A stretch of DNA of 64,000 nt from an uncultured bacterium (GTDB taxonomy: Bacteria > BMS3Abin14), in contig CBFDCL010000001.1 in assembly GCA_965603295.1 (NCBI GenBank), positions 506 to 64,505 on the forward strand. The letters are read 5' to 3'. Position 1 is the stretch's first letter; every line of letters starts with the position of its first letter. A program made the position numbers and the translations under genes. The notes beneath the pieces are model-generated. The model was given only the letters and a program-made list of their open reading frames with translations, did not search any database and was not told the origin of the DNA. Positions 24,284 through 61,958 of this stretch are shown in pieces.

Positions 24284-24334
24284 TCATCGATCACTTCGAG
24301 TCCAAAGTCCAACGCCCAAAGCCCAAAGGGATAG

Positions 24335-24515
24335 AACAATTGAGGATTGAGGATTGAGAATTGAGAATTGAGAAAAAACAGTGATTAGTGATTCGTGATT
24401 GGTGATTGGAAAACGGTTTGAGGTTTGAAGTCTGAGGTTTGAAGTTTTACGTCAGAAGCCAGGATCCATAGGCCAGGAAGAAATTCACATTAAACATTAA
24501 ACAGTAAACGTTAAA
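24335..24515. repeat. composite heptamer element E-H-F followed by an (AAACGTT)n-like tract; direct repeat of 23401-23523 on the other side of hpt
   Basis: E 24335-24371, H 24378-24408, F 24413-24447, N' 24484-24515; preceded by (CCAAAG)n at 24299-24329. Confidence 0.75.
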
Positions 24516-24540
24516 CCTATATGCACCAGGGACTTTCTTT

Positions 24541-25425: not shown

Positions 25426-25509
25426 GCGTTAAAGGTTGAGGGTTTGTGGTTTGCGGTGATGGGAAAAGTTTTCAGTGCCTCGATGCACCAGTGAACTTGT
25501 GCACTGACC

Positions 25510-25572
25510 CCTCAACTCTCAACCCTCAACTCTCAACCCTCAACTCTCAACCCTCAACTCTCAACCCTTAAC
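25510..25572. repeat. (CTCAACY)7 tandem heptamer array downstream of hcp
   Basis: cctcaactctcaaccctcaactctcaaccctcaactctcaacccttaac. Confidence 0.7.
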
Positions 25573-25581
25573 TTGGAACTA

Positions 25582-38960: not shown

Positions 38961-39290
38961 ATGGATTTTGAAAAACTCAAAAAAGAATGCGAAATCAACA
39001 CTTTCCGGGCTCCCGGGCCCGGGGGACAGCACAAGAATGTCACCGATTCCGCGGTGCGTTTGAAGCATCGACCCACGGGGATCGTTGTTATCGGACGCAG
39101 GCACCGGTCCCAGCATCGCAATATGGCCGATGCGTTGAGTCGCCTGGCTGAAAAGATCGAGGAGAGCCGCAGGGTCCGGAGGAAGAGGAAGCCTACCCGG
39201 AAGCCGAGAGCCGTTCGGGAAAGGGAGCTGGAAATGAAGAAAAAGACAGGAGTTCGAAAGTCCCTGCGTCGCAGGATCCCTCCTCCCTAA
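38961..39290 (+). CDS. arfB: peptidyl-tRNA hydrolase ArfB-like (class I release-factor GGQ domain, basic tail)
   Basis: GPGGQHKN GGQ motif and Arg/Lys-rich C-terminal tail. Confidence 0.65.
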   Translation: MDFEKLKKECEINTFRAPGPGGQHKNVTDSAVRLKHRPTGIVVIGRRHRSQHRNMADALSRLAEKIEESRRVRRKRKPTRKPRAVRERELEMKKKTGVRKSLRRRIPPP

Positions 39291-39525
39291 CCGGGGGACC
39301 CGCGAGTCAAGAATGCGGCTTTAAGAGCGGATCCAGGATCCAGGAACCAAGATCCAAGAAAAAATCCAGAGATCAGAAACTAATTGGAAATATGAAGACT
39401 CTAGATTCAAACCACGAATCTCAACTTGAAACCTCAAACTGCAAACTTCAAACACTAACCCTCAACTCTCAATTCTCAACTGCCTTTCCCGTTGGACATT
39501 GGACGTTGGACGTTGGACTCTGCCT

Positions 39526-40947
39526 TTAACCTACTTCGTGAAGTGGCCTCACCCGGAACCTGGCCCCCATGTCCTTCGCGATTTTCCGGCAGGCTTCCAC
39601 GTCCACGTCAGGGTGGCGCACCACTGTCAGGATGACGTCCAGATTCGCCTCGACGCACTTTCTGGAAAAATCCAGGAGAGAGCGGTAGGGGTCCGGTCCA
39701 AGGCTCGGCCGGCAGACTCCTTCAAAAGTCGCGGCATCCTGGGCGTTGAGGCTGATGGACACGGTATCGACAGCTCCCGCCAGTTCCTCCACTATATTTC
39801 TCCGGTGGAAAAGGTTGCCCAGGCCGTTGGTGTTAAGACGGATCCTGACGGCGGGTGAACTTTCCCGGACCCTTGCCGCCGTTTCGAGGATCTCGGGAAG
39901 CCGCATGGTGGGCTCTCCGTAACCGCAGAACACGACCTCTTCACTCGTCCGCCAACCCTCGAGTTCAAGGGCCTGGAGCATCTCCTCCGGGGTGGGATCC
40001 CGTTCAAGCCTCAGGTCGTGGCCCTTGACCACCGGGTTGATGGTTCTCTGGCAGAATGTGCACGCGTTCGTGCACTGACTGGTAACGTTCAGGTACACCG
40101 AGTCCCGTATCGTATAGGCAACTTTCGAGGGAGGCAGATCCACCGGGAGGCGGAAGAAGCGAACGGCGTTTCGTGTCGTGATGCGGGCAACATCGTCAAC
40201 GGACAATCCTTTAACCTTGGCGATGCGCTCGGCCACGAGGTGAACATGGGCTGGTTCGTTCCTCTGACCTCGGAAGGGGTGAGGCGCCAGGTAAGGGCTG
40301 TCCGTTTCCACCATCATGCGCTCGAGGGGGACAAAGGAAAGGACCTTCTCGGACCACTCCCGGTTCTTTTTTCCCTCGTAAGTCACCGTGCCTGTAAAGG
40401 AGAGGTTCAGACCCATTTCGAGGAAAGCCGCCGCGTCATCCACAGTCCCGGAGAAACAGTGCACTACCGCTCCCATCTGCCCGACACCCTCTTCCCCCAG
40501 GACACGGAGAGCATCCGCGTAAGCATCCCTGACGTGAATGACCAGGGGTTTCCCGGCCTCCCGGGCCAGGGCCAGGTGGAGCCGGAACGATTTCTCCTGT
40601 AAGGGCCTGGGAGAATGGTCCTTGAAAAAGTCCAGCCCGGTCTCCCCGATCCCTACCACAGGTTTTCTCGCGGCCAGTTTGGACAGTTCGGTCATGACCC
40701 CGTCATCGACATCCGAGGCGTCGTGAGGATGCACCCCGACCACGGCAGACACCTCACGGTACTTTTGGGCGATCTTAAGGGCCCGCCTGCTCTCGGCAAG
40801 GGTCGACCCCACGGTGACGAGGTGAATGATCCCCGAAGCGTGAGCGCGTTCGAGAACCTGCTCCAGGTCGGCTTTGAACTGGCGCATCTCCAGATGCGCG
40901 TGGGAGTCAATGAGAAAGGAGGGCATTGTTTGGAGTTCGGAGTTCAT
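39526..40947 (-). CDS. tatD: TatD-family hydrolase fused to a TatD-associated radical SAM domain
   Basis: N-terminal TatD (SHAHL, GIGETGLD, HCFSG, ETDSPYL); C-terminal CTNACTFC Cx3Cx2C radical-SAM motif; directly downstream of metG. Confidence 0.8.
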   Translation of the reverse strand: MNSELQTMPSFLIDSHAHLEMRQFKADLEQVLERAHASGIIHLVTVGSTLAESRRALKIAQKYREVSAVVGVHPHDASDVDDGVMTELSKLAARKPVVGIGETGLDFFKDHSPRPLQEKSFRLHLALAREAGKPLVIHVRDAYADALRVLGEEGVGQMGAVVHCFSGTVDDAAAFLEMGLNLSFTGTVTYEGKKNREWSEKVLSFVPLERMMVETDSPYLAPHPFRGQRNEPAHVHLVAERIAKVKGLSVDDVARITTRNAVRFFRLPVDLPPSKVAYTIRDSVYLNVTSQCTNACTFCQRTINPVVKGHDLRLERDPTPEEMLQALELEGWRTSEEVVFCGYGEPTMRLPEILETAARVRESSPAVRIRLNTNGLGNLFHRRNIVEELAGAVDTVSISLNAQDAATFEGVCRPSLGPDPYRSLLDFSRKCVEANLDVILTVVRHPDVDVEACRKIAKDMGARFRVRPLHEVG

Positions 40948-40996
40948 AGGTCAGGGTTCAGAGTCTAGAATCTAGAATCAAGAATCTTACTGCTGC

Positions 40997-42937
40997 CTAC
41001 CTGATCCTCATCCCCGGCTTGACTTCTTTGTCGAAGGTCACCAGAGAGAGGTTCTCCCCATCGTGGGCGGCCAGGAGCATCCCGTTGGACTCGACCCCCA
41101 TGAGCTTTGCGGGGGCAAGGTTCCCAACGACGGCAATGGAAAGGCCAACGAGTTCCTCGGGTTTGTAAAATTCGGCGATCCCTGCCACGATCTGGCGCTC
41201 AACCCCGGTGTCCACGATTATTCGGATCAGCTTTTGAGACTGGGGGACGTTCTCGGCCTGGAGGACTTTCCCGGTGACGAGCTCCACTTTGGCGAACTCA
41301 TCGATAGTGATGACGTTTTCCATGGTTTCTTTCTTCTCCCTTCCTTCTTCTTCCTTCTCGGTTTCCTTTTCCCCCACCGGGATCTCCGGCAGTTCCTCAA
41401 TGCGCGGGAACAGGGAAGGCCCCCTGAAAACTTTCGTCCCCCCTGGCATGCCTCCCCACACGTCGAGGGAAGTCACGGCGTGGAGCTCTTTTTCCTGGGC
41501 GATACCGAGCTGGCGGTACATCTTCTGGCCGGTCTCCGGCATGAAAGGGGTGATCATCACGGCCACCTGCCGAATGGCTTCGAAAAGGGAATACATCACC
41601 GAGTCCAGCTGCGCGTCCTTCCCTTCCTTGAAAAGGGCCCAGGGAGCAGCCGAATCAACATATTTGTTGGCCGCTCTGATGAATTCCCAGACAGATTTAA
41701 GAGCACGGTCGAAAGCGAGGTTCCCCATCTGTTTTGCAAGTTCGTCCCTCGCGGTTCCGGCAGCCGCCTGGAGGCTCCGGGAGAGGTCGTCCCCCTCCCC
41801 ATCGGATGGGGAGGGAGGTATAACTCCATCCCTGTACTTTTCCAGCATGCCGAGGGAGCGCTGGAGAAGGTTTCCCAGATCGTTGGCCAGGTCAGAGTTT
41901 ATCCGGCCAACAAGGGCGGAGTGGGAAAAATCCCCGTCCAGTCCGAAGGGAACTTCCCTGAGAAGAAAATACCGAACCGGATCAGCCCCGTATTCATCCG
42001 TGAGCATGTTCGGCTCAACCACGTTCCGGAGGGATTTGGACATTTTGCGCCCCTCTACCGTCCACCAGCCGTGGGCAAAGACACGGGCCGGAGGGGCAAG
42101 CCCTTCCCCCTGGAGCATCGTGGGCCAGTAAACGGTGTGGGTGGTCAGGATATCCTTCCCGATGAGGTGGGTGCAGTTTTTCCACAGGGCTTGGAACCGG
42201 TCGTCATCGGTTGTGTAGCCAGAGGCCGTGACGTAGTTGATAAGGGCGTCAAACCAGACGTAGGTTACGTATTCCCTGTCAAAGGGGATTTCCACACCCC
42301 AGTGGAGACGGCTCTTGGGGCGGCTGATGCAGAGATCTTCCAGGGGCTGCTTGAGAAAACCAATGATCTCGTTCCGCCGTGAATCCGGCCTAATGAAGTC
42401 GGGGTTCTCCTCGATATGGCGGGTGAGCCATTCCTGGTATTTGCTCATTCGGAAAAAGTAGTTGCTCTCCTCGATCTGAACGACTTCTCTCCCGCAGTCC
42501 GGACATTTGCCGTCAGTCAGGTCCTTCTCGGTCCAGAACCTTTCGTCGGGTACGCAGTACCAGCCGGAGTACGAGGACTTGTAGATATCCCCGCTGTTGA
42601 AAAGTTTCTGGAGAAAATGCTGGACCACCAGGATATGGCGATCCTCCGTGGTGCGGATGAAGTCGTCGTTGGAGATGTTGAAACGTCTCCAGAGATCCTG
42701 AAATCGGACCACCATCTGATCACAGTGTGTCTGGGCATCCAGGCCCCGCTCTTTCGCGGCCTGTTCCACCTTTTGCCCGTGCTCATCGGTTCCCGTCAGG
42801 AACATGACGGTCCGGCCGGTGGATCTCATGTAGCGGGCGATAACGTCAGCTGCCACTGTTGTGTAAACGTGCCCGATATGGGGGACGTCGTTGACATAGT
42901 AGATCGGTGTGGTCACGTAAAAGGTGTCGCCGTTCAT
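40997..42937 (-). CDS. metG: methionine--tRNA ligase with C-terminal tRNA-binding (EMAP/Trbp111-like) domain
   Basis: HIGH (HIGH-V) and KMSKS motifs, zinc knuckle, C-terminal OB-fold. Confidence 0.9.
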   Translation of the reverse strand: MNGDTFYVTTPIYYVNDVPHIGHVYTTVAADVIARYMRSTGRTVMFLTGTDEHGQKVEQAAKERGLDAQTHCDQMVVRFQDLWRRFNISNDDFIRTTEDRHILVVQHFLQKLFNSGDIYKSSYSGWYCVPDERFWTEKDLTDGKCPDCGREVVQIEESNYFFRMSKYQEWLTRHIEENPDFIRPDSRRNEIIGFLKQPLEDLCISRPKSRLHWGVEIPFDREYVTYVWFDALINYVTASGYTTDDDRFQALWKNCTHLIGKDILTTHTVYWPTMLQGEGLAPPARVFAHGWWTVEGRKMSKSLRNVVEPNMLTDEYGADPVRYFLLREVPFGLDGDFSHSALVGRINSDLANDLGNLLQRSLGMLEKYRDGVIPPSPSDGEGDDLSRSLQAAAGTARDELAKQMGNLAFDRALKSVWEFIRAANKYVDSAAPWALFKEGKDAQLDSVMYSLFEAIRQVAVMITPFMPETGQKMYRQLGIAQEKELHAVTSLDVWGGMPGGTKVFRGPSLFPRIEELPEIPVGEKETEKEEEGREKKETMENVITIDEFAKVELVTGKVLQAENVPQSQKLIRIIVDTGVERQIVAGIAEFYKPEELVGLSIAVVGNLAPAKLMGVESNGMLLAAHDGENLSLVTFDKEVKPGMRIR

Positions 42938-43803
42938 TGGAGTTTCTCCCTCAACTCGTCGATATCCATAACAATGGGTTTGCCGTCGGTCATGTCAATG
43001 GTCACGGTTCTGGAGAAGATATCAATGAACCTGATCTTCCCGGTTCCCTCGGGCACGGTCACCTTTTTCCCGACCTTGGGGAGGCCCTCGAAAACCTCCT
43101 TGTACTGGCCGTATTCGTAACTGAGGCAGCAAAGAAGCCGCCCGCAGCCGCCGGAGATCTTGGTCGGGTTCAGGATCACGTTCTGTTCCTTGGCCATTTT
43201 CACCGAGATCGCGTCGAACTCCTTCAGGAAAGTGCTGCAGCAAAAGGCCATTCCGCACGGGCCCAGGCCCCCGAGCAGCCTGGCTTCGTCGCGGATTCCG
43301 ATCTGCCGCATCTCGATCCGGGTTCCAAACTCCTTTGCCAGCATCCTCACGAGTTCCCGGAAGTCCACCCTTTTTTCCGCGGTGAAATAAAAGATGGCTT
43401 TGGAACGATCAAGGAGGAATTCCACCCTGACCAGACGCATGGAAATGTCCCACTCCTGAATGGTGTTGGCGCAAAATTCGAAGGCTTTGCGCTCGAGCTC
43501 CCTGTTCTCGTCGTCCTTTTCCGTTTCTTCCGGGGTCGCCTTCCTCAGCACAATGAGGTCCTTGCACCCGCGGCACTCGAGGGTCACGGGAGGCTCCATC
43601 ACAACCCCGACGGCCTTGCCCTTCTCCGTCTGGACCACCACTTCGTCTCCCTGCCTGAGGGTATGCTCCCCGGCGTTGAAATGGGAGGAGCGGTTCTGGC
43701 CTCGAACGGCCACCAGGACCGTTCTCAGGCCGGCGATACCGGAGTCGTTATCCGTTTGTTCTGTGGGTTCGTTAAGAGTGTTGTCGCCGTTTTCGGGTTC
43801 CAT
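42934..43803 (-). CDS. PSP1 C-terminal domain protein (YaaT-like)
   Basis: PSP1 domain; position holB-yaaT-(...)-metG as in Firmicutes. Confidence 0.75.
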   Translation of the reverse strand: MEPENGDNTLNEPTEQTDNDSGIAGLRTVLVAVRGQNRSSHFNAGEHTLRQGDEVVVQTEKGKAVGVVMEPPVTLECRGCKDLIVLRKATPEETEKDDENRELERKAFEFCANTIQEWDISMRLVRVEFLLDRSKAIFYFTAEKRVDFRELVRMLAKEFGTRIEMRQIGIRDEARLLGGLGPCGMAFCCSTFLKEFDAISVKMAKEQNVILNPTKISGGCGRLLCCLSYEYGQYKEVFEGLPKVGKKVTVPEGTGKIRFIDIFSRTVTIDMTDGKPIVMDIDELREKLQ

Positions 43804-43807
43804 TTTC

Positions 43808-44812
43808 TTAAACTCTTTTCTCCCCGGACGCTGTTTGCTCGCGGATGGTAAGCAGCAGGCTGTCCAGGGTCAACTGGATATTGGTGTTGGCGTTTAAAGC
43901 TTCGCGAGCGTCCTCAATGGATTCGAGAACGGCATCGAAGGGGTATCCCGCGTTTTTTGCCACGGCTTCCCTGAGTGCCGGGATGTGGGCGGCGCTGATG
44001 ACCTGGCTTTCCTTTCCTCCTTCGGACAGGATCAAAAGGTCCCTGTACCACTGGATCATAAGTTCAAGGGTTCTGACGGTCTCCTGACGGTTTTTGCTCC
44101 AGGTTTGAGAAAGATCAAGGGTTTTTCCTGGCCCCAGGTCGCCGAGGGTCAGAAGCCGGTCAAACTCCCCGGTGCTGCTCAGGAGGACCCCGTCCCGGTG
44201 GAGGGACAGGGCCCGTTCCATACTTCCTTCCGCCATGGAGGATAACCGTTCCGCATCCGCGGCGGAGATGCCCTTTTCCTTCAGCAGATCGCTGAGCACC
44301 TTTTTCCCCAGGGGCCTGAAAGGCAGAACCTGGCATCTCGAGGTGATGGTAGGAAGGACGGATTCCCTGTGGGGGGCAATCAAGATGAAGTGCGACGTTT
44401 CCGGGGGCTCTTCAAGGGTTTTCAGAAAGGCGCTCGCAGCGTTGGTGTTCATGAGCTGTGCGTCCTCCACGATAAAAGTCGAACTACTTCCTATCATGGG
44501 TTTGAGGTAGGCTTTTTCCAGGATCTCCTCGCGAACCTGCTGGATAAGGATCTGCCTTTTGCCCTTGGCCGGCCCAATGAGGTGGAGGTCGGGATGATTT
44601 CCCGCCGCGTAGAGACGGCAGGAGGAACAGGTTCCGCAGGCAAAGGGCCCTGACTCGCAATTCAGGCCGGCTGCCACGGCGACCGCCGCCGGCATCCTCC
44701 CACATCCGTCAGGTCCGGTGAACAGGTAGGAGGTAGGTATCCTTTTGTTTTTAAGGGCTTTTGTCAGGATTGCGAGGGGACCATCCTGACCCTTTATCCG
44801 GTCAAAATACAT
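43808..44812 (-). CDS. holB: DNA polymerase III subunit delta'
   Basis: AAA+ clamp-loader motifs (YLFTGPDGCGR), Cys4 zinc module, SRC motif. Confidence 0.8.
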   Translation of the reverse strand: MYFDRIKGQDGPLAILTKALKNKRIPTSYLFTGPDGCGRMPAAVAVAAGLNCESGPFACGTCSSCRLYAAGNHPDLHLIGPAKGKRQILIQQVREEILEKAYLKPMIGSSSTFIVEDAQLMNTNAASAFLKTLEEPPETSHFILIAPHRESVLPTITSRCQVLPFRPLGKKVLSDLLKEKGISAADAERLSSMAEGSMERALSLHRDGVLLSSTGEFDRLLTLGDLGPGKTLDLSQTWSKNRQETVRTLELMIQWYRDLLILSEGGKESQVISAAHIPALREAVAKNAGYPFDAVLESIEDAREALNANTNIQLTLDSLLLTIREQTASGEKRV

Positions 44813-45449
44813 GGGGAAACCTCGCTGCTAACTCCCTGATCACCGCCTCGGAGAGCTCCGGTGGCTGCGACTCCCCGTCGAGGAGCAGGAACCTTTCCGG
44901 GTCCTCCTTCATTATCCTGAGGTAACCTTCCCGGACCCGGTGGTGAAAAGCCAGTTCTTCCTCGTCGATCCGCGATTCCGACTGATCCGCTGCCAGGTTG
45001 TTACGCCTCCTGGCCCTCTCGAGGCCCAACTCGGCGGGAAGGTCCAGCAGAACGGTCATGTCGGGCCGGATCCCACCTCGTGCGGCCCCGTCAACCGCAT
45101 TCACGGTTTCGGGTGGGACTCCCCGTCCGTGACCCTGGTATGCGAGGGTCGCATCGGAGAACCGGTCACACAGGATCATGCCGCCGGCTTCAAGGGTCGG
45201 ACGGACCACTTCAGCCACATGCTGGGCCCGGTCGGCTCCGAACAGCATGAGTTCTGTCACGGCTTCCATCCCCGCTGCCCCGGGATCGAGGAGGACATTC
45301 CGTAATGCGATCCCGAGATCGGTGCCGCCCGGTTCCCTGGAGAGGAGGGGATCAAACCCCTTCTCCCGAAGGGCATGGGCAACCAGGTCCATAAGGGTTG
45401 TTTTTCCCGACCCCTCGATTCCCTCGAATGTAATGAATATCCCGCGCAT
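44802..45449 (-). CDS. tmk: thymidylate kinase
   Basis: Start MRGIFITFEGIEGSGKTT (P-loop); the upstream ORF-track extension was rejected. Confidence 0.85.
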   Translation of the reverse strand: MRGIFITFEGIEGSGKTTLMDLVAHALREKGFDPLLSREPGGTDLGIALRNVLLDPGAAGMEAVTELMLFGADRAQHVAEVVRPTLEAGGMILCDRFSDATLAYQGHGRGVPPETVNAVDGAARGGIRPDMTVLLDLPAELGLERARRRNNLAADQSESRIDEEELAFHHRVREGYLRIMKEDPERFLLLDGESQPPELSEAVIRELAARFPHVF

Positions 45450-45469
45450 CAGACGGTTTTCCCGCGTTG

Positions 45470-45584
45470 AGAAGCCAGGAGCCAGGAGCCAGTGGCCAGT
45501 GGCCAGTGGGTTCTGAAATGGTGTAATCATAGCCGGAATTTTTGAACTTCTCCTGACTCTTGAATTCTGACTCCTGGCTCCTGC
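45470..45584. repeat. inverted arrays of (GCCAGGA)/(CCAGTGG) versus (CTCCTGG/CTCCTGA) heptamers in the tmk-mogA spacer
   Basis: gccaggagccaggagccagtggccagtggccagtgg at 45470-45510; ctcctgactcttgaattctgactcctggctcctg at 45550-45584; the word recurs at 34921-34940. Confidence 0.6.
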
Positions 45585-45585
45585 A

Positions 45586-46089
45586 TTATTCGGAGCCACA
45601 CTCCGATGGATCGCCCTTGATCTTGAGAAGCAGGTGCTCGAGGAAGCCGAAGAGCACCTCCATGTTCTCACGCACCGCTTTCGGACTCCCGGGAAGGTTG
45701 ACGATCAGCGTTGTTCCGCGGATTCCGGCGACCCCCCGGGTAAGTGCTGAGGTGGGGATCCGATCCCGGGCAACGGCCCTCATGGCCTCGGGGATGCCGG
45801 GTATCTCCACATCCAAAGCTCCCCGGGTTGCCTCCGGTGTTCTGTCCCTGGGGGAGGGGCCTGTCCCTCCGGTTGTCAGGATTAGATCGAGTTGGTCCTC
45901 ATCGGCCCAGATTCTGAGTTTCTTCGTAATCAGGAGTTCCTCGTCGGGGAGGACTTCCCGGTGAGCCCACAGGACATCGAATTCCGGATGGGCGGTGAAG
46001 CTTTCCATGATTGCGGGGCCGCTGAGATCTTCGTACTCCCCCCTGCTGGATCGATCGCTGAGGGTCAGAACACCGGCATTAATCCTCAA
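45586..46089 (-). CDS. mogA: molybdenum cofactor biosynthesis protein MogA/MoaB family
   Basis: (L)RINAGVLTLSDRSSRGEYEDLSGP N-terminal motif; probable TTG start overlapping the MOSC gene by 11 nt. Confidence 0.65.
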   Translation of the reverse strand: MRINAGVLTLSDRSSRGEYEDLSGPAIMESFTAHPEFDVLWAHREVLPDEELLITKKLRIWADEDQLDLILTTGGTGPSPRDRTPEATRGALDVEIPGIPEAMRAVARDRIPTSALTRGVAGIRGTTLIVNLPGSPKAVRENMEVLFGFLEHLLLKIKGDPSECGSE

Positions 46090-51062: not shown

Positions 51063-52086
51063 CAGGTTCCCGGATTCCCTTCCGGGGTGTTCCCGTTTCC
51101 CCCGAATATTCTGCCTTCTGATCACGGTTATCTTTCTGGTTTCCGGGTGTTCCGGTTCGCGAAAGCCCGTTCGTGAGACCCGCTTCCTGATGGGGACCCT
51201 CGTCGATGTGATCGCCTACGGGGACCAGGAAACGGCCGCCGAGGCGGTGGGCCGGGCCTTCGAAAGGATGGCGGAGGTGGAAGAGGCATCTCATAGTAAG
51301 GGCTTGGGTTCCCTTCTTGGGGCCATCAGGGACGGAAAGGGTGCCCTTCTTACCGGTGATGCCGCTCTCGTCATGGAAACGGCCCTGTCCGTCGCTGTGG
51401 CCAGTTCGGGGGCTTTTGATCCCACTCTGGGGGAACTGGTGGAACTGTGGGGGATCGCCACCGGTCATCCGGAAGTGCCCGATGACGAGAAGATCAAAGA
51501 GGCCCTTTCCCGTTCCGGGTACCAAAGGATCCCGGAGACAGGGTGCTGTCCCGATGGGATGAAGGTGTGGCTGGACCTGGGCGGTGTGGCCAAAGGGTAC
51601 GCGGTGGATGAAGCGGTCAAAGTGCTGAAGGAGGCGGGGGTCCCCTCGGGGATCGTTAACGCGGGCGGGGATCTGAGGTCCTTCGGTCAAAAGCCGGGGA
51701 AAATTCCCTGGAAGATCGGGATCCAGAATCCCGATGACCCTCAGGATCTGGCGGGGGTCCTGGATGTTAACGAGGTCTCCGTCGCGACCTCGGGGGATTA
51801 TCAGCGATACTTTGAGGTGAGCGGTGTCCGGTATCACCATATCCTCGATTCGACCACCGGACATCCCGCACGGTCAGGGGTCCGCAGTGTGACAGTCCTC
51901 ACGGATGACTGCGCTCTTGCCGATGCCCTGGCCACAGCCGCTTTCGTGATGGGTCCCGAAAGGGGCCTGGGTCTGCTGGAGGCCTGGGAAGATGTGGAGG
52001 GGATCATCATTTCCCAGGACGGTACCTATCACCTGACGTTGGGCATAGGAACGAAGATCCCGTTTGAGAAGCGAATTGAGGATTGA
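51052..52086 (+). CDS. apbE: FAD:protein FMN transferase ApbE (lipoprotein)
   Basis: Lipobox (LVSGCSG); ApbE motifs (DLGGVAKGYAVD, GGD); the stop codon lies inside a GAGGATTGAG repeat. Confidence 0.8.
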   Translation: MMIDRFPDSLPGCSRFPRIFCLLITVIFLVSGCSGSRKPVRETRFLMGTLVDVIAYGDQETAAEAVGRAFERMAEVEEASHSKGLGSLLGAIRDGKGALLTGDAALVMETALSVAVASSGAFDPTLGELVELWGIATGHPEVPDDEKIKEALSRSGYQRIPETGCCPDGMKVWLDLGGVAKGYAVDEAVKVLKEAGVPSGIVNAGGDLRSFGQKPGKIPWKIGIQNPDDPQDLAGVLDVNEVSVATSGDYQRYFEVSGVRYHHILDSTTGHPARSGVRSVTVLTDDCALADALATAAFVMGPERGLGLLEAWEDVEGIIISQDGTYHLTLGIGTKIPFEKRIED

Positions 52087-52324
52087 GAATTGAGAGTTGA
52101 GGATTGAGAAAAAAGTTTGAAAGTTTGAGAGTTTGAGGTTTGAAGTTGTGAATTCAGGAGACAGGAGCCAGAATCCAGAAGGCAGCATTTCTTTGGCCTT
52201 TGGGCATTGGGCTTTGGGCTGTTCTTCCAATCACCAATCACTGGTCACAAATCACCGAAATTTTCTTGGATCTTGGATCTGTTTTGAAATTTGGAATTTG
52301 AAATTGCCTTTTGAGATTTGAGAT

Positions 52325-52717
52325 ATGAGGTCTGAAATAGGAACTCGATCCATTCGCCTGACCCGTCCCCGATGGGCGGACGGGGTCCTGCTGGTCCTCC
52401 TGATCGCCCTGACGTTCCTTCCCCCACGGTTGATCCCGGCCGGTCCCAAAGGCGACACCCTCGTGGTCAGGACGTCGGGGTCCGTTTTTGAGGTGGATCT
52501 TACCGATGAAGGGCCCCATCCCATCGATGGCCCGCTGGGAGAGGCTGTCCTCATGGTCCGGGACGGGAAGGCCTGGCTTCAGAACGCTCCCTGTCCGCTC
52601 AAGATCTGCGAGGGGATGGGCCCCATTGACGAGTCCGGCGAGATCATCCTGTGCCTGCCGAACCGGATTCATATTCAGGTAGCAGGGAGCGGTGGTGTTG
52701 ATGCGATCTCCCGGTAG
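52325..52717 (+). CDS. NusG domain II-containing membrane protein
   Basis: N-terminal TM helix plus small beta domain; family call from memory only. Confidence 0.45.
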   Translation: MRSEIGTRSIRLTRPRWADGVLLVLLIALTFLPPRLIPAGPKGDTLVVRTSGSVFEVDLTDEGPHPIDGPLGEAVLMVRDGKAWLQNAPCPLKICEGMGPIDESGEIILCLPNRIHIQVAGSGGVDAISR

Positions 52718-57650: not shown

Positions 57651-58026
57651 TGCCCTCTCCTGGTTTTGCGAACGGGTCACCCCGGCATCTGGCGGAGAAA
57701 ATGAAAAAATACAGCAAGTGCAGAAGGTTTGCAACGAGGCGACAGTCGGAGGGGCTTGTAAGCAGTGCACGGTGTCTGGTATCTAGAAGAGAAGTTGGTT
57801 GGAGTTTGAGAGTTTGAGAGTTTGAAAGTTGCAGGTCAGTGCAGAGTGTAAAGTGCATCCCCCTTCGCCAAGGCTACGGGGGACAGGGGGTGCAGAGGGG
57901 AAAGTCCGACGCGGAGACACGATGACGCGGGGACGCGGAGGAAGACCGAGATTTGAAGTTTGATGTTTGAAGTTGGAAACACGTTCAACGTTCAACGTGT
58001 TCTTCTTGAATCTTGAATCTTGAATC

Positions 58027-59442
58027 TTGAATCTTGAACCCGATCGAAAGGGGCTCGGATTGAGCCAGGACGCGAAAAAGATCGAGAAATACAGGGGCAT
58101 CATCAAGTTCCTTGAGCACGCTGTCAGAAACATCGCTATTTACCCCTCTGAACACCCATCGGTTAAGGGGGTGTCAAAGCGCGCTTTTGATCTCCTCGGC
58201 CAGATTTTGGAGGAAGCTCCCGAGGTCCGGGTCCGGGTTGTCAACGGGACCCTTTTTCTGGACGAATATTCCTTCTCCGAGCCGACACCCTATTCCCGGA
58301 ACTTTATGAAGGTCCTTGATAGCTTCGGGATCGACGACCTGTTTTTCCGGAAAGGTGTTTCCGAGGATGAGTTCCTCATGCTTTCCGAGGTTCTGAATGC
58401 CAGGGAACGAAGCAGGGAAATGTTCCAGGAGATGTGCGAAAGGGAAGGGATACGGAATATCGGTCTGGGGAGGGAAGGACCCCGGCAGGATCATGGGGAC
58501 GGGGCCGAAGGGGATGTCCAGACCCTCGAGGATGCGGTGGGGAGAGTTGAGCAGTTTTTCAATGAAGTGGGCGGAGGCGGGTTCCCCTCCCTGCATGATG
58601 TGGAAAGTCTCGTTGAAGGCTTGATGAAAATTTCGGGAACCCGTGAGGCCTTTTCCCCTCATCTTTTTGGTGAAAAAGGGTACGACTCTTATACATTTGG
58701 CCACTGTGTCAACGTGGGAATCCTTTCCCTTCTCCTCGCTCGCCAGAAAGGGCTTAGCGAACAGGATGTCAGGAAGGCCGCCCTCGCCGGGTTAATGCAC
58801 GACATCGGAAAGGCGAGGGTGCCCCCTGGGATCGTTCAAAAGCCGGGCTTTCTGACCCCCCGGGAAAATGAGGAGATGAAATCCCACGCTGACTATTCGG
58901 GAGAAGTTGTGCGGCGGATGGGCGGTGCCGAGGATGTGGCAGGGGCTGTGGAGAACCATCACAGGTTTCACGACGGGGGCGGCTACCCGGCTCGGGAAGA
59001 TGGGGAAAATGTCCCGGCCCTTGCCGGTCTGGTATCGGTTGCGGATTTTTTCGACGCTGCCACGGCGGCTCGTCCCTATCGGGTGGCCTTGAACCCCGTC
59101 GAGGTTATGGATTATCTGAGGAAAGAACGAGGCCGCAGGTTCGACCCTGTTCACGTGGATGCCCTTTTCGCCCTGCTTGGACCGTTTCCTCCGGGATCCG
59201 TCATCCGGCTCTCGAGCAACGAGATTGGCGTTGTTGTCACGGGCGGGGAGCATTCGGGAGCCCTTTCCGTGAGGATGATCATCGACCGGGATGGTGATCC
59301 TTTCGGCAGTAGGCGCATCCTGGACCTGAATGGACCTGATGCGGCGGGGAGGGTTGTGGCTGGAGTTGTCGATCCGGCCCTTTACGGTCTGGAAATATCG
59401 GTTGCCCTTTCCTTCGGTTCTTACGCGAACCTGTCGCGATAA
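58027..59442 (+). CDS. cytoplasmic HD-GYP domain phosphodiesterase
   Basis: HDIGK and HHRFHDGGGYP motifs; the real start is probably an internal TTG/GTG. Confidence 0.7.
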   Translation: MNLEPDRKGLGLSQDAKKIEKYRGIIKFLEHAVRNIAIYPSEHPSVKGVSKRAFDLLGQILEEAPEVRVRVVNGTLFLDEYSFSEPTPYSRNFMKVLDSFGIDDLFFRKGVSEDEFLMLSEVLNARERSREMFQEMCEREGIRNIGLGREGPRQDHGDGAEGDVQTLEDAVGRVEQFFNEVGGGGFPSLHDVESLVEGLMKISGTREAFSPHLFGEKGYDSYTFGHCVNVGILSLLLARQKGLSEQDVRKAALAGLMHDIGKARVPPGIVQKPGFLTPRENEEMKSHADYSGEVVRRMGGAEDVAGAVENHHRFHDGGGYPAREDGENVPALAGLVSVADFFDAATAARPYRVALNPVEVMDYLRKERGRRFDPVHVDALFALLGPFPPGSVIRLSSNEIGVVVTGGEHSGALSVRMIIDRDGDPFGSRRILDLNGPDAAGRVVAGVVDPALYGLEISVALSFGSYANLSR

Positions 59443-61757: not shown

Positions 61758-61958
61758 TCTCCGGAGTGCAGGATATAGAGTGCAGTGTGCAGAGGGTAAG
61801 AACAATTGAGAATTGAGGATTGAGAATCACGGTTTGAAGTTTGAGGTTTTGAGTTTGAAGTTGCCGATTTGCTTTGTCTCTGCACTTTACACCCTGCACT
61901 CTGCACTCAATTCTCTGGACTCTGAACCCTGAACTCTGAACTCTGAACCGGCCTTTTT

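Follow-up and report, generated by a model that had tools for sequence, protein, structure and literature searches.

A 64,000-nucleotide stretch of DNA from an uncultured bacterium (GTDB lineage BMS3Abin14; NCBI GenBank assembly GCA_965603295.1, contig CBFDCL010000001.1, positions 506 to 64,505), the whole of which is referred to here as the window, contains an open reading frame (ORF) whose 473-residue product combines a TatD-type nuclease domain and a radical S-adenosylmethionine (SAM) domain in a single polypeptide. The positions of this ORF, of its domains and motifs and of the neighboring genes are collected in Table 1. The reading frame is broken by neither a stop codon nor a frameshift, and three independent metagenome assemblies each include a contig on which the exact 473-residue product was called, excluding a hidden frameshift or a chimeric assembly as its source. 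The true start codon is probably that of Met8 rather than the listed ATG at position 40947, because the closest homologues (74–83% identity) are 462–466 residues long, as compared to the 466 residues given by a Met8 start, and begin three to five residues before the sequence LIDSHAHL. No obvious Shine-Dalgarno sequence was found upstream of either ATG.

The N-terminal half of the protein corresponds to TatD. Pfam PF01026 (TatD_DNase) matches residues 13–266 with an E-value of 4.7e-81, while the NCBIfam model TIGR00010 (YchF/TatD family) returned 266.4 bits, above its cut-off of 206. The nearest TatD relatives of solved structure are Staphylococcus aureus 'YcfH' (PDB 6l25, E-value 1.3e-58, with 6l25 and 2gzx both lying near 1e-58) and Escherichia coli YcfH (1yix, 1.2e-53), with E. 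coli TatD (about 1e-39) and YjjV (1e-29) being further removed. E. coli YcfH acts as a 3'-exonuclease on single-stranded DNA and as an apurinic/apyrimidinic (AP) endonuclease on double-stranded DNA (PMC10085689), and TatD of S. aureus degrades DNA as well as RNA (PMC7201278). Alignment of 56 fused homologues (alignment A2) revealed Asp14, His16, His18, Glu102, His138, His163, Glu214, and Asp216 to be invariant. These include the HxH motif that defines Group II TatD enzymes (PMC10085689), as well as two glutamates, Glu102 and Glu214, that align with Glu92 and Glu202 of S. aureus TatD, both critical to catalysis (PMC7201278). Given the invariance of these metal-binding and catalytic residues and the alignment of the glutamate pair, the nuclease half, a two-metal enzyme, looks fully competent, with all metal ligands and both catalytic glutamates present. 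Scored with NF008075, the strict equivalog model for E. coli YcfH, the protein reached 210.4 bits against a cut-off of 438 and is hence called YcfH-like, on the basis of its best PDB matches and synteny, rather than YcfH.

The C-terminal half is a minimal radical SAM domain of some 195 residues that carries no accessory domain. Pfam PF04055 (Radical_SAM) covers residues 287–451 (E-value 1.9e-15), and the family model TIGR04038 (tatD_link_rSAM; IPR023821) was matched over positions 2–191 of its 192 with 229.9 bits, well over the cut-off of 129.7. The CX3CX2C motif (CTNACTFC), containing the predicted ligands of a [4Fe-4S] cluster, and the CGYGEP, NTNG, and SISLN motifs are all invariant or nearly so in alignments A1 and A2, which comprise stand-alone and fused members of the family. 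Within CGYGEP, Cys341, Gly344, Glu345, and Pro346 are invariant in A2, as are the equivalent residues in A1 (C71, G72, G74, E75, and P76). AlphaFold2 modeling of the domain yielded a partial TIM barrel (predicted local distance difference test score, pLDDT, 94; predicted template modeling score, pTM, 0.90). Among proteins of solved structure, a sequence-profile comparison placed RlmN first, as a weak match (E-value 3.8e-6), with MoaA and TYW1 also matching weakly; these relatives act on RNA or nucleotides. As judged from its motifs, the radical SAM core is intact. Cluster binding and SAM cleavage are predicted.

The cysteines of the domain were also considered. Cys341 is the only family-wide invariant cysteine outside the cluster motif. 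Cys412 and Cys453 are kept in 90% or more of the fused proteins and are replaced by serine or threonine in some stand-alone members, such as that of Carboxydothermus; since these positions are so substituted, a conserved auxiliary Fe-S cluster is unlikely to be a feature of the family. Assignment to other radical SAM families was likewise rejected. The sister family model TIGR04100 (rSAM_pair_X) returned 196.4 bits against a cut-off of 262, and all nine stand-alone relatives tested also fell below that cut-off, yet pass TIGR04038. The models for viperin (21.9 vs. 180 bits), MoaA (26.2 vs. 284), RlmN (14.1 vs. 441), and NrdG2 (14.5 vs. 131) all scored far below their cut-offs.

An earlier sequence-only reading of this DNA had described a complete TatD fold joined, in one uninterrupted polypeptide, to a radical SAM domain of the TatD-associated family bearing the CTNACTFC motif, and had proposed searches with family models, with a split reading frame or a lack of further radical SAM core motifs counting against it. 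That description is borne out by the PF01026 and TIGR00010 matches in the N-terminal half, by the TIGR04038 score obtained in the model search, by the presence of C292, C296, and C299 together with the three other core motifs, and by the recovery of the same ORF from three assemblies.

Table 1. Features of the TatD-radical SAM fusion locus and its surroundings, in positions of the window.
Feature	Positions	Strand	Basis or remark
TatD-radical SAM fusion ORF	39526..40947	minus	473 aa, coordinates include stop codon; no internal stop
Met8 ATG, probable start codon	40924..40926	minus	Length of closest homologues; product 466 aa
TatD metal-dependent nuclease domain, YcfH-type/Group II, residues 13-266	40150..40911	minus	Pfam, TIGR00010, PDB relatives
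HxH motif H16-A17-H18	40894..40902	minus	Invariant in 56 fused homologues
Inter-domain linker, residues 267-275	40123..40149	minus	pLDDT ~84 in full-length model
Minimal radical SAM core domain, TIGR04038, residues 276-469	39541..40122	minus	NCBIfam
CTNACTFC = CX3CX2C, C292/C296/C299, predicted [4Fe-4S] ligands	40051..40074	minus	Invariant in alignments A1 and A2
CGYGEP, C341-P346, GGE-type SAM motif preceded by invariant extra Cys	39910..39927	minus	Alignments A1 and A2
metG (methionyl-tRNA synthetase; tRNA-synt_1g, Anticodon, tRNA_bind)	40997..42937	minus	Directly upstream of fusion
PSP1/RicT-like gene	42934..43803	minus	Upstream array
holB	43808..44812	minus	Upstream array
tmk	44802..45671	minus	Upstream array
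Small 109-aa RF-1-domain protein, GGQ motif, ArfB/peptidyl-tRNA-hydrolase-like	38961-39290	plus	Convergent to fusion gene
Example heptamer-array regions	24302-24516, 25509-25573, 52073-52329, 57802-58038, 61804-61948		
Heptamer-array regions flanking the fusion ORF	39329-39518, 40960-40987		

The manner in which the two halves are joined was next considered. Between Phe265, in the last TatD helix, and Tyr278, in the strand that opens the radical SAM domain, the spacing is 12 residues for 52 of the 56 homologues (43–83% identity) and 11 residues for the other four. The AlphaFold2 model of the full-length protein reached a pLDDT of 94.2 and a pTM of 0.84, a value that, for a two-domain protein, points to a confidently placed interface. 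Because the linker is of near-fixed length and the two-domain model is confident, the two domains are probably rigidly coupled. In those instances in which the two halves are encoded separately but side by side (L059, L069, and L074), the order of tatD followed by the radical SAM gene is kept and the ORFs touch or overlap. The proposal that fusion reflects a substrate shared by both domains is a reasonable one, with the linker and the two-domain model lending it some support.

To describe how common the fusion is, relatives were sought at the level of proteins, genomes, and profiles. In a search with the whole protein, both Pfam domains were present in every one of the top 120 clusters except one (clusters built at the 90% identity level, 43% to 83% identical to the query, and in some cases encoded on megabase contigs), with most members being about 456–497 residues long. 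At least 598 species-representative genomes, distributed over roughly a dozen or more lineages at the phylum level, most of them anaerobic, encode a relative. Among the best 80 loci of these matches, 67 encode the fusion, three present tatD and the radical SAM gene directly adjacent to each other and one presents them 3.7 kb apart, while the remaining nine contain no TatD-encoding sequence within 6 kb, with their products still scoring above the TIGR04038 cut-off. The surroundings of these stand-alone genes are heterogeneous. Fused loci were found in Desulfuromonadales (Trichlorobacter, Geomonas, and Desulfuromusa), Nitrospirota/Thermodesulfovibrionales, Planctomycetota (including an anammox lineage), Nitrospinota, Omnitrophota, Verrucomicrobiota, Acidobacteriota, Myxococcota, Zixibacteria, Ignavibacteriales, and others.

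When 1.84 billion representatives were searched with a profile, 591 clusters were returned at an E-value of 1e-30 or better, and the best 150 of these, about half of them fused, comprised 63 full fusions, 14 proteins with a truncated N-terminal extension, and 73 stand-alone proteins. With the radical SAM half alone as query, stand-alone proteins of about 198 residues were detected in Carboxydothermus, Acetobacterium, Desulfohalotomaculum, and other Clostridia, as well as in Elusimicrobiota and Patescibacteria. Such proteins are named 'TatD family nuclease-associated radical SAM protein' in the source databases, and fused as well as stand-alone members (records P0144, P0176, P0183, and P0217) carry the TatD-associated radical SAM name in public annotation; the named public entries seen for fused relatives of full length describe the TatD half only. 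In a rough neighbor-joining tree of 150 radical SAM domains, about 20 switches between the fused and stand-alone states were counted, with pure clades being small, but the tree is too noisy to show whether the fusion arose once, the sequences being short and divergent and some 'stand-alone' examples probably being truncated gene calls. Two rare architectures were also seen, namely, a 310-residue protein (P0313) in which an N-terminal radical SAM domain is extended on its C-terminal side by about 110 residues, and a 289-residue protein (P0282) with two matched stretches, in which the radical SAM domain is partly duplicated. The survey of fused and split versions proposed in the sequence-only reading hence recovered both. 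Outside Bacillota, many lineages of Gram-negative anaerobes have the fusion as their standard form, whereas Bacillota and certain other groups encode the two proteins separately, often by adjacent tatD and radical SAM genes.

In terms of known systems, the protein shares with TIGR04038/IPR023821 the same invariant motifs and the linkage to TatD; it is 43–83% identical to hundreds of fused members, from which no feature distinguishes it. With YcfH/YabD-type TatD proteins (E. coli YcfH, 1yix; S. aureus SAV0491, 6l25/2gzx), it has in common the Group II HxH motif, the metal ligands, and the catalytic glutamates, although the E. coli and S. aureus proteins lack the C-terminal radical SAM domain present in the fusion. 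The minimal radical SAM folds represented by the pyruvate formate-lyase (PFL) activating enzyme and the NifB core share only 17–21% sequence identity with this domain, and the fusion further differs from these enzymes in presenting no above-cut-off activase or NifB match, no glycyl-radical partner, and no family-wide auxiliary-cluster cysteines. As compared to RlmN/Cfr, the domain is much smaller and is without the RlmN N-terminal domain and two-cysteine arrangement (14 bits with the RlmN model vs. a cut-off of 441). It is also much smaller than spore photoproduct lyase, the DNA-binding elements of which it lacks. The earlier description of a recognized family with no characterized function holds, in that the family is curated (TIGR04038/IPR023821) and no functional study of it was found in the literature searched, where IPR023821 is named in passing (bioRxiv 10.1101/2024.11.19.624229).

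Examination of the region upstream showed that the fusion gene closes a housekeeping operon of tmk, holB, PSP1, and metG. This position matches that of YcfH-type genes, which follow holB in E. coli and metG/metS in Bacillota. Among the 56 fused loci for which 2 kb or more of upstream sequence was available, metG is the gene directly upstream in 30, and in 24 of these 30, PSP1 and holB are also present, forming a colinear array that recurs in other phyla. The metG context is missing from the Planctomycetota and from most Nitrospirota loci. The conserved metG-tatD arrangement claimed by the sequence-only reading is therefore real, yet holds for only about half of the lineages. A role in defense, as for QatD or pVip, was considered and rejected, since the QatD model scored 80 bits against a cut-off of 230, the 76 bits assigned to QatD by PADLOC reflect generic TatD similarity and the neighbors are tmk, holB, PSP1, and metG. 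The tmk ORF, as listed, encodes 289 residues, begins with an N-terminal extension of about 70 residues that does not look native, and overlaps the start region of holB by 11 nt; the real tmk start is probably internal.

When every ORF in the 3.5 kb following each of the 67 fused genes was clustered, no conserved third partner emerged. The commonest downstream genes were rsmA/ksgA, directly adjacent in six cases, and those encoding a CAAX-type membrane protein and an MtnA-like isomerase, each in five. The latter gene, of the MtnA/eIF-2B type (methylthioribose-1-phosphate isomerase-like), shares the strand of the fusion gene in these five fused loci, some 1.1 kb downstream of it (e.g., L070:7934-8971), and may relate to salvage of a SAM by-product or may reflect only the shared ancestry of the loci. 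The RF-1-domain gene found beside the fusion gene in the window is not conserved at this position in other lineages. In a metagenome-assembled genome (MAG) of Desulfotomaculaceae (L057:7212-10212), a stand-alone TIGR04038 gene is followed by apparent queD, queC, another gene, queE, and folE. This preQ0/7-deazaguanine neighborhood, assigned by eye from translations and seen in a single case, is probably a coincidence, albeit one offering a nucleic acid-modification context.

Elsewhere, the intergenic regions of the window are dense in short tandem heptamer arrays, often with several different 7-bp units lying side by side. Tandem Repeats Finder returned 110 rows for the window, 72 of period 7, as compared to 9–16 rows, 0–4 of period 7, for second-order Markov resamples. 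Of 95 arrays of period 7, 8, or 14, 66 lie mostly outside ORFs, with some gaps between ORFs being more than 50% covered. These arrays resemble the short tandemly repeated repetitive (STRR) heptamer repeats of heterocystous cyanobacteria, whereas the genome considered here looks like the MAG of an anaerobe. An Rfam scan of the window returned no matches, and a scan for promoters and terminators yielded signals at background level.

Taken together, the protein is shown to be a YcfH-like TatD nuclease fused to a TIGR04038 radical SAM domain, and a mechanism in which the two halves act in concert on nucleic acid is tentatively put forward. This explanation as a whole is given a confidence that falls a little short of even. 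Here, the reduced [4Fe-4S] cluster would cleave SAM to generate a 5'-deoxyadenosyl radical, which would then take a hydrogen atom from a damaged or to-be-modified nucleotide of a DNA or RNA single strand. A neighboring phosphodiester would be hydrolyzed at the rigidly attached TatD site by the 3'-5' exonuclease or AP-endonuclease chemistry known from YcfH, with the invariant Cys341 and Tyr278/Tyr285 being candidate residues for hydrogen atom relay. So assembled, the two domains would comprise an oxygen-sensitive nucleic acid repair or processing module of anaerobes. A nucleic acid substrate is suggested because of the nuclease activities of YcfH and TatD, the weak relatedness of the radical SAM half to RlmN, MoaA, and TYW1, and the replication and translation genes found nearby. 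Considered by itself, the central step, namely, abstraction of a hydrogen atom from a nucleotide in single-stranded nucleic acid coupled to phosphodiester hydrolysis by TatD, is possible though rather doubtful. A narrower version, in which an anaerobe-specific radical repair or editing system abstracts hydrogen at a lesion or modified residue in single-stranded DNA, RNA, or tRNA, coupled to excision by TatD, is unlikely; were it true, spore photoproduct lyase would be the only repair-type radical SAM enzyme to precede the fusion. A variant prompted by the metG neighborhood, in which aminoacyl-tRNA is acted upon, is more speculative.

Other explanations were also weighed. It is quite unlikely that the radical SAM domain serves as a maturase or activase that modifies or radicalizes TatD or another protein, much as the PFL activating enzyme does with pyruvate formate-lyase. 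Neither a glycyl-radical motif nor any other distinctive target residue is evident in the TatD domain, the invariant residues of which essentially correspond to the catalytic set shared with, for example, S. aureus TatD. Moreover, YcfH and TatD enzymes show nuclease activity without any modification, nine loci contain the radical SAM gene with no TatD nearby, and activase models, such as NrdG2, scored far under their cut-offs. Less likely again is a free nucleotide or other small phosphoester metabolite as the substrate of the pair, with a MoaA- or viperin-like rearrangement or dehydration of a nucleoside phosphate being followed by phosphoesterase action of TatD on the product. The similarity to those related families falls far under the cut-offs and covers mainly the generic core, no biosynthetic neighbors are conserved, the TatD enzymes characterized to date are nucleases that act on polymers, and the operon context is one of replication and translation housekeeping rather than metabolism. 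The least likely explanation, that the fusion is without mechanistic meaning, two independent housekeeping genes that chanced to lie side by side at an operon's end having merged when a stop codon was lost, with each domain retaining its own substrate, is suggested by the ease of fusion and fission implied by the interleaving of fused and stand-alone forms in the rough tree and by the distance between the radical SAM gene and tatD in some genomes, but is argued against by a linker near-invariant in length down to 43% identity, the confident relative placement of the domains, the gene order kept in split versions, and the recurrence of the pairing in many phyla, with or without metG upstream, given how seldom accidental fusions are kept so widely.

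The family, its InterPro entry, the fused architecture, and identical sequences are already present in public databases and assemblies. Since Gram-negative anaerobes ordinarily encode the family in fused form, there is little novelty in the locus, which adds to those databases neither a new architecture nor a new context or clue and would not surprise a specialist. The practical gain is one of correct annotation, namely, as a bifunctional TatD nuclease/TIGR04038 radical SAM protein. At the same time, this is a widespread, syntenic, and housekeeping-linked family, and knowledge of the reaction it catalyzes would fill a gap both in the map of radical SAM enzymes and in the biology of YcfH-type TatD proteins.
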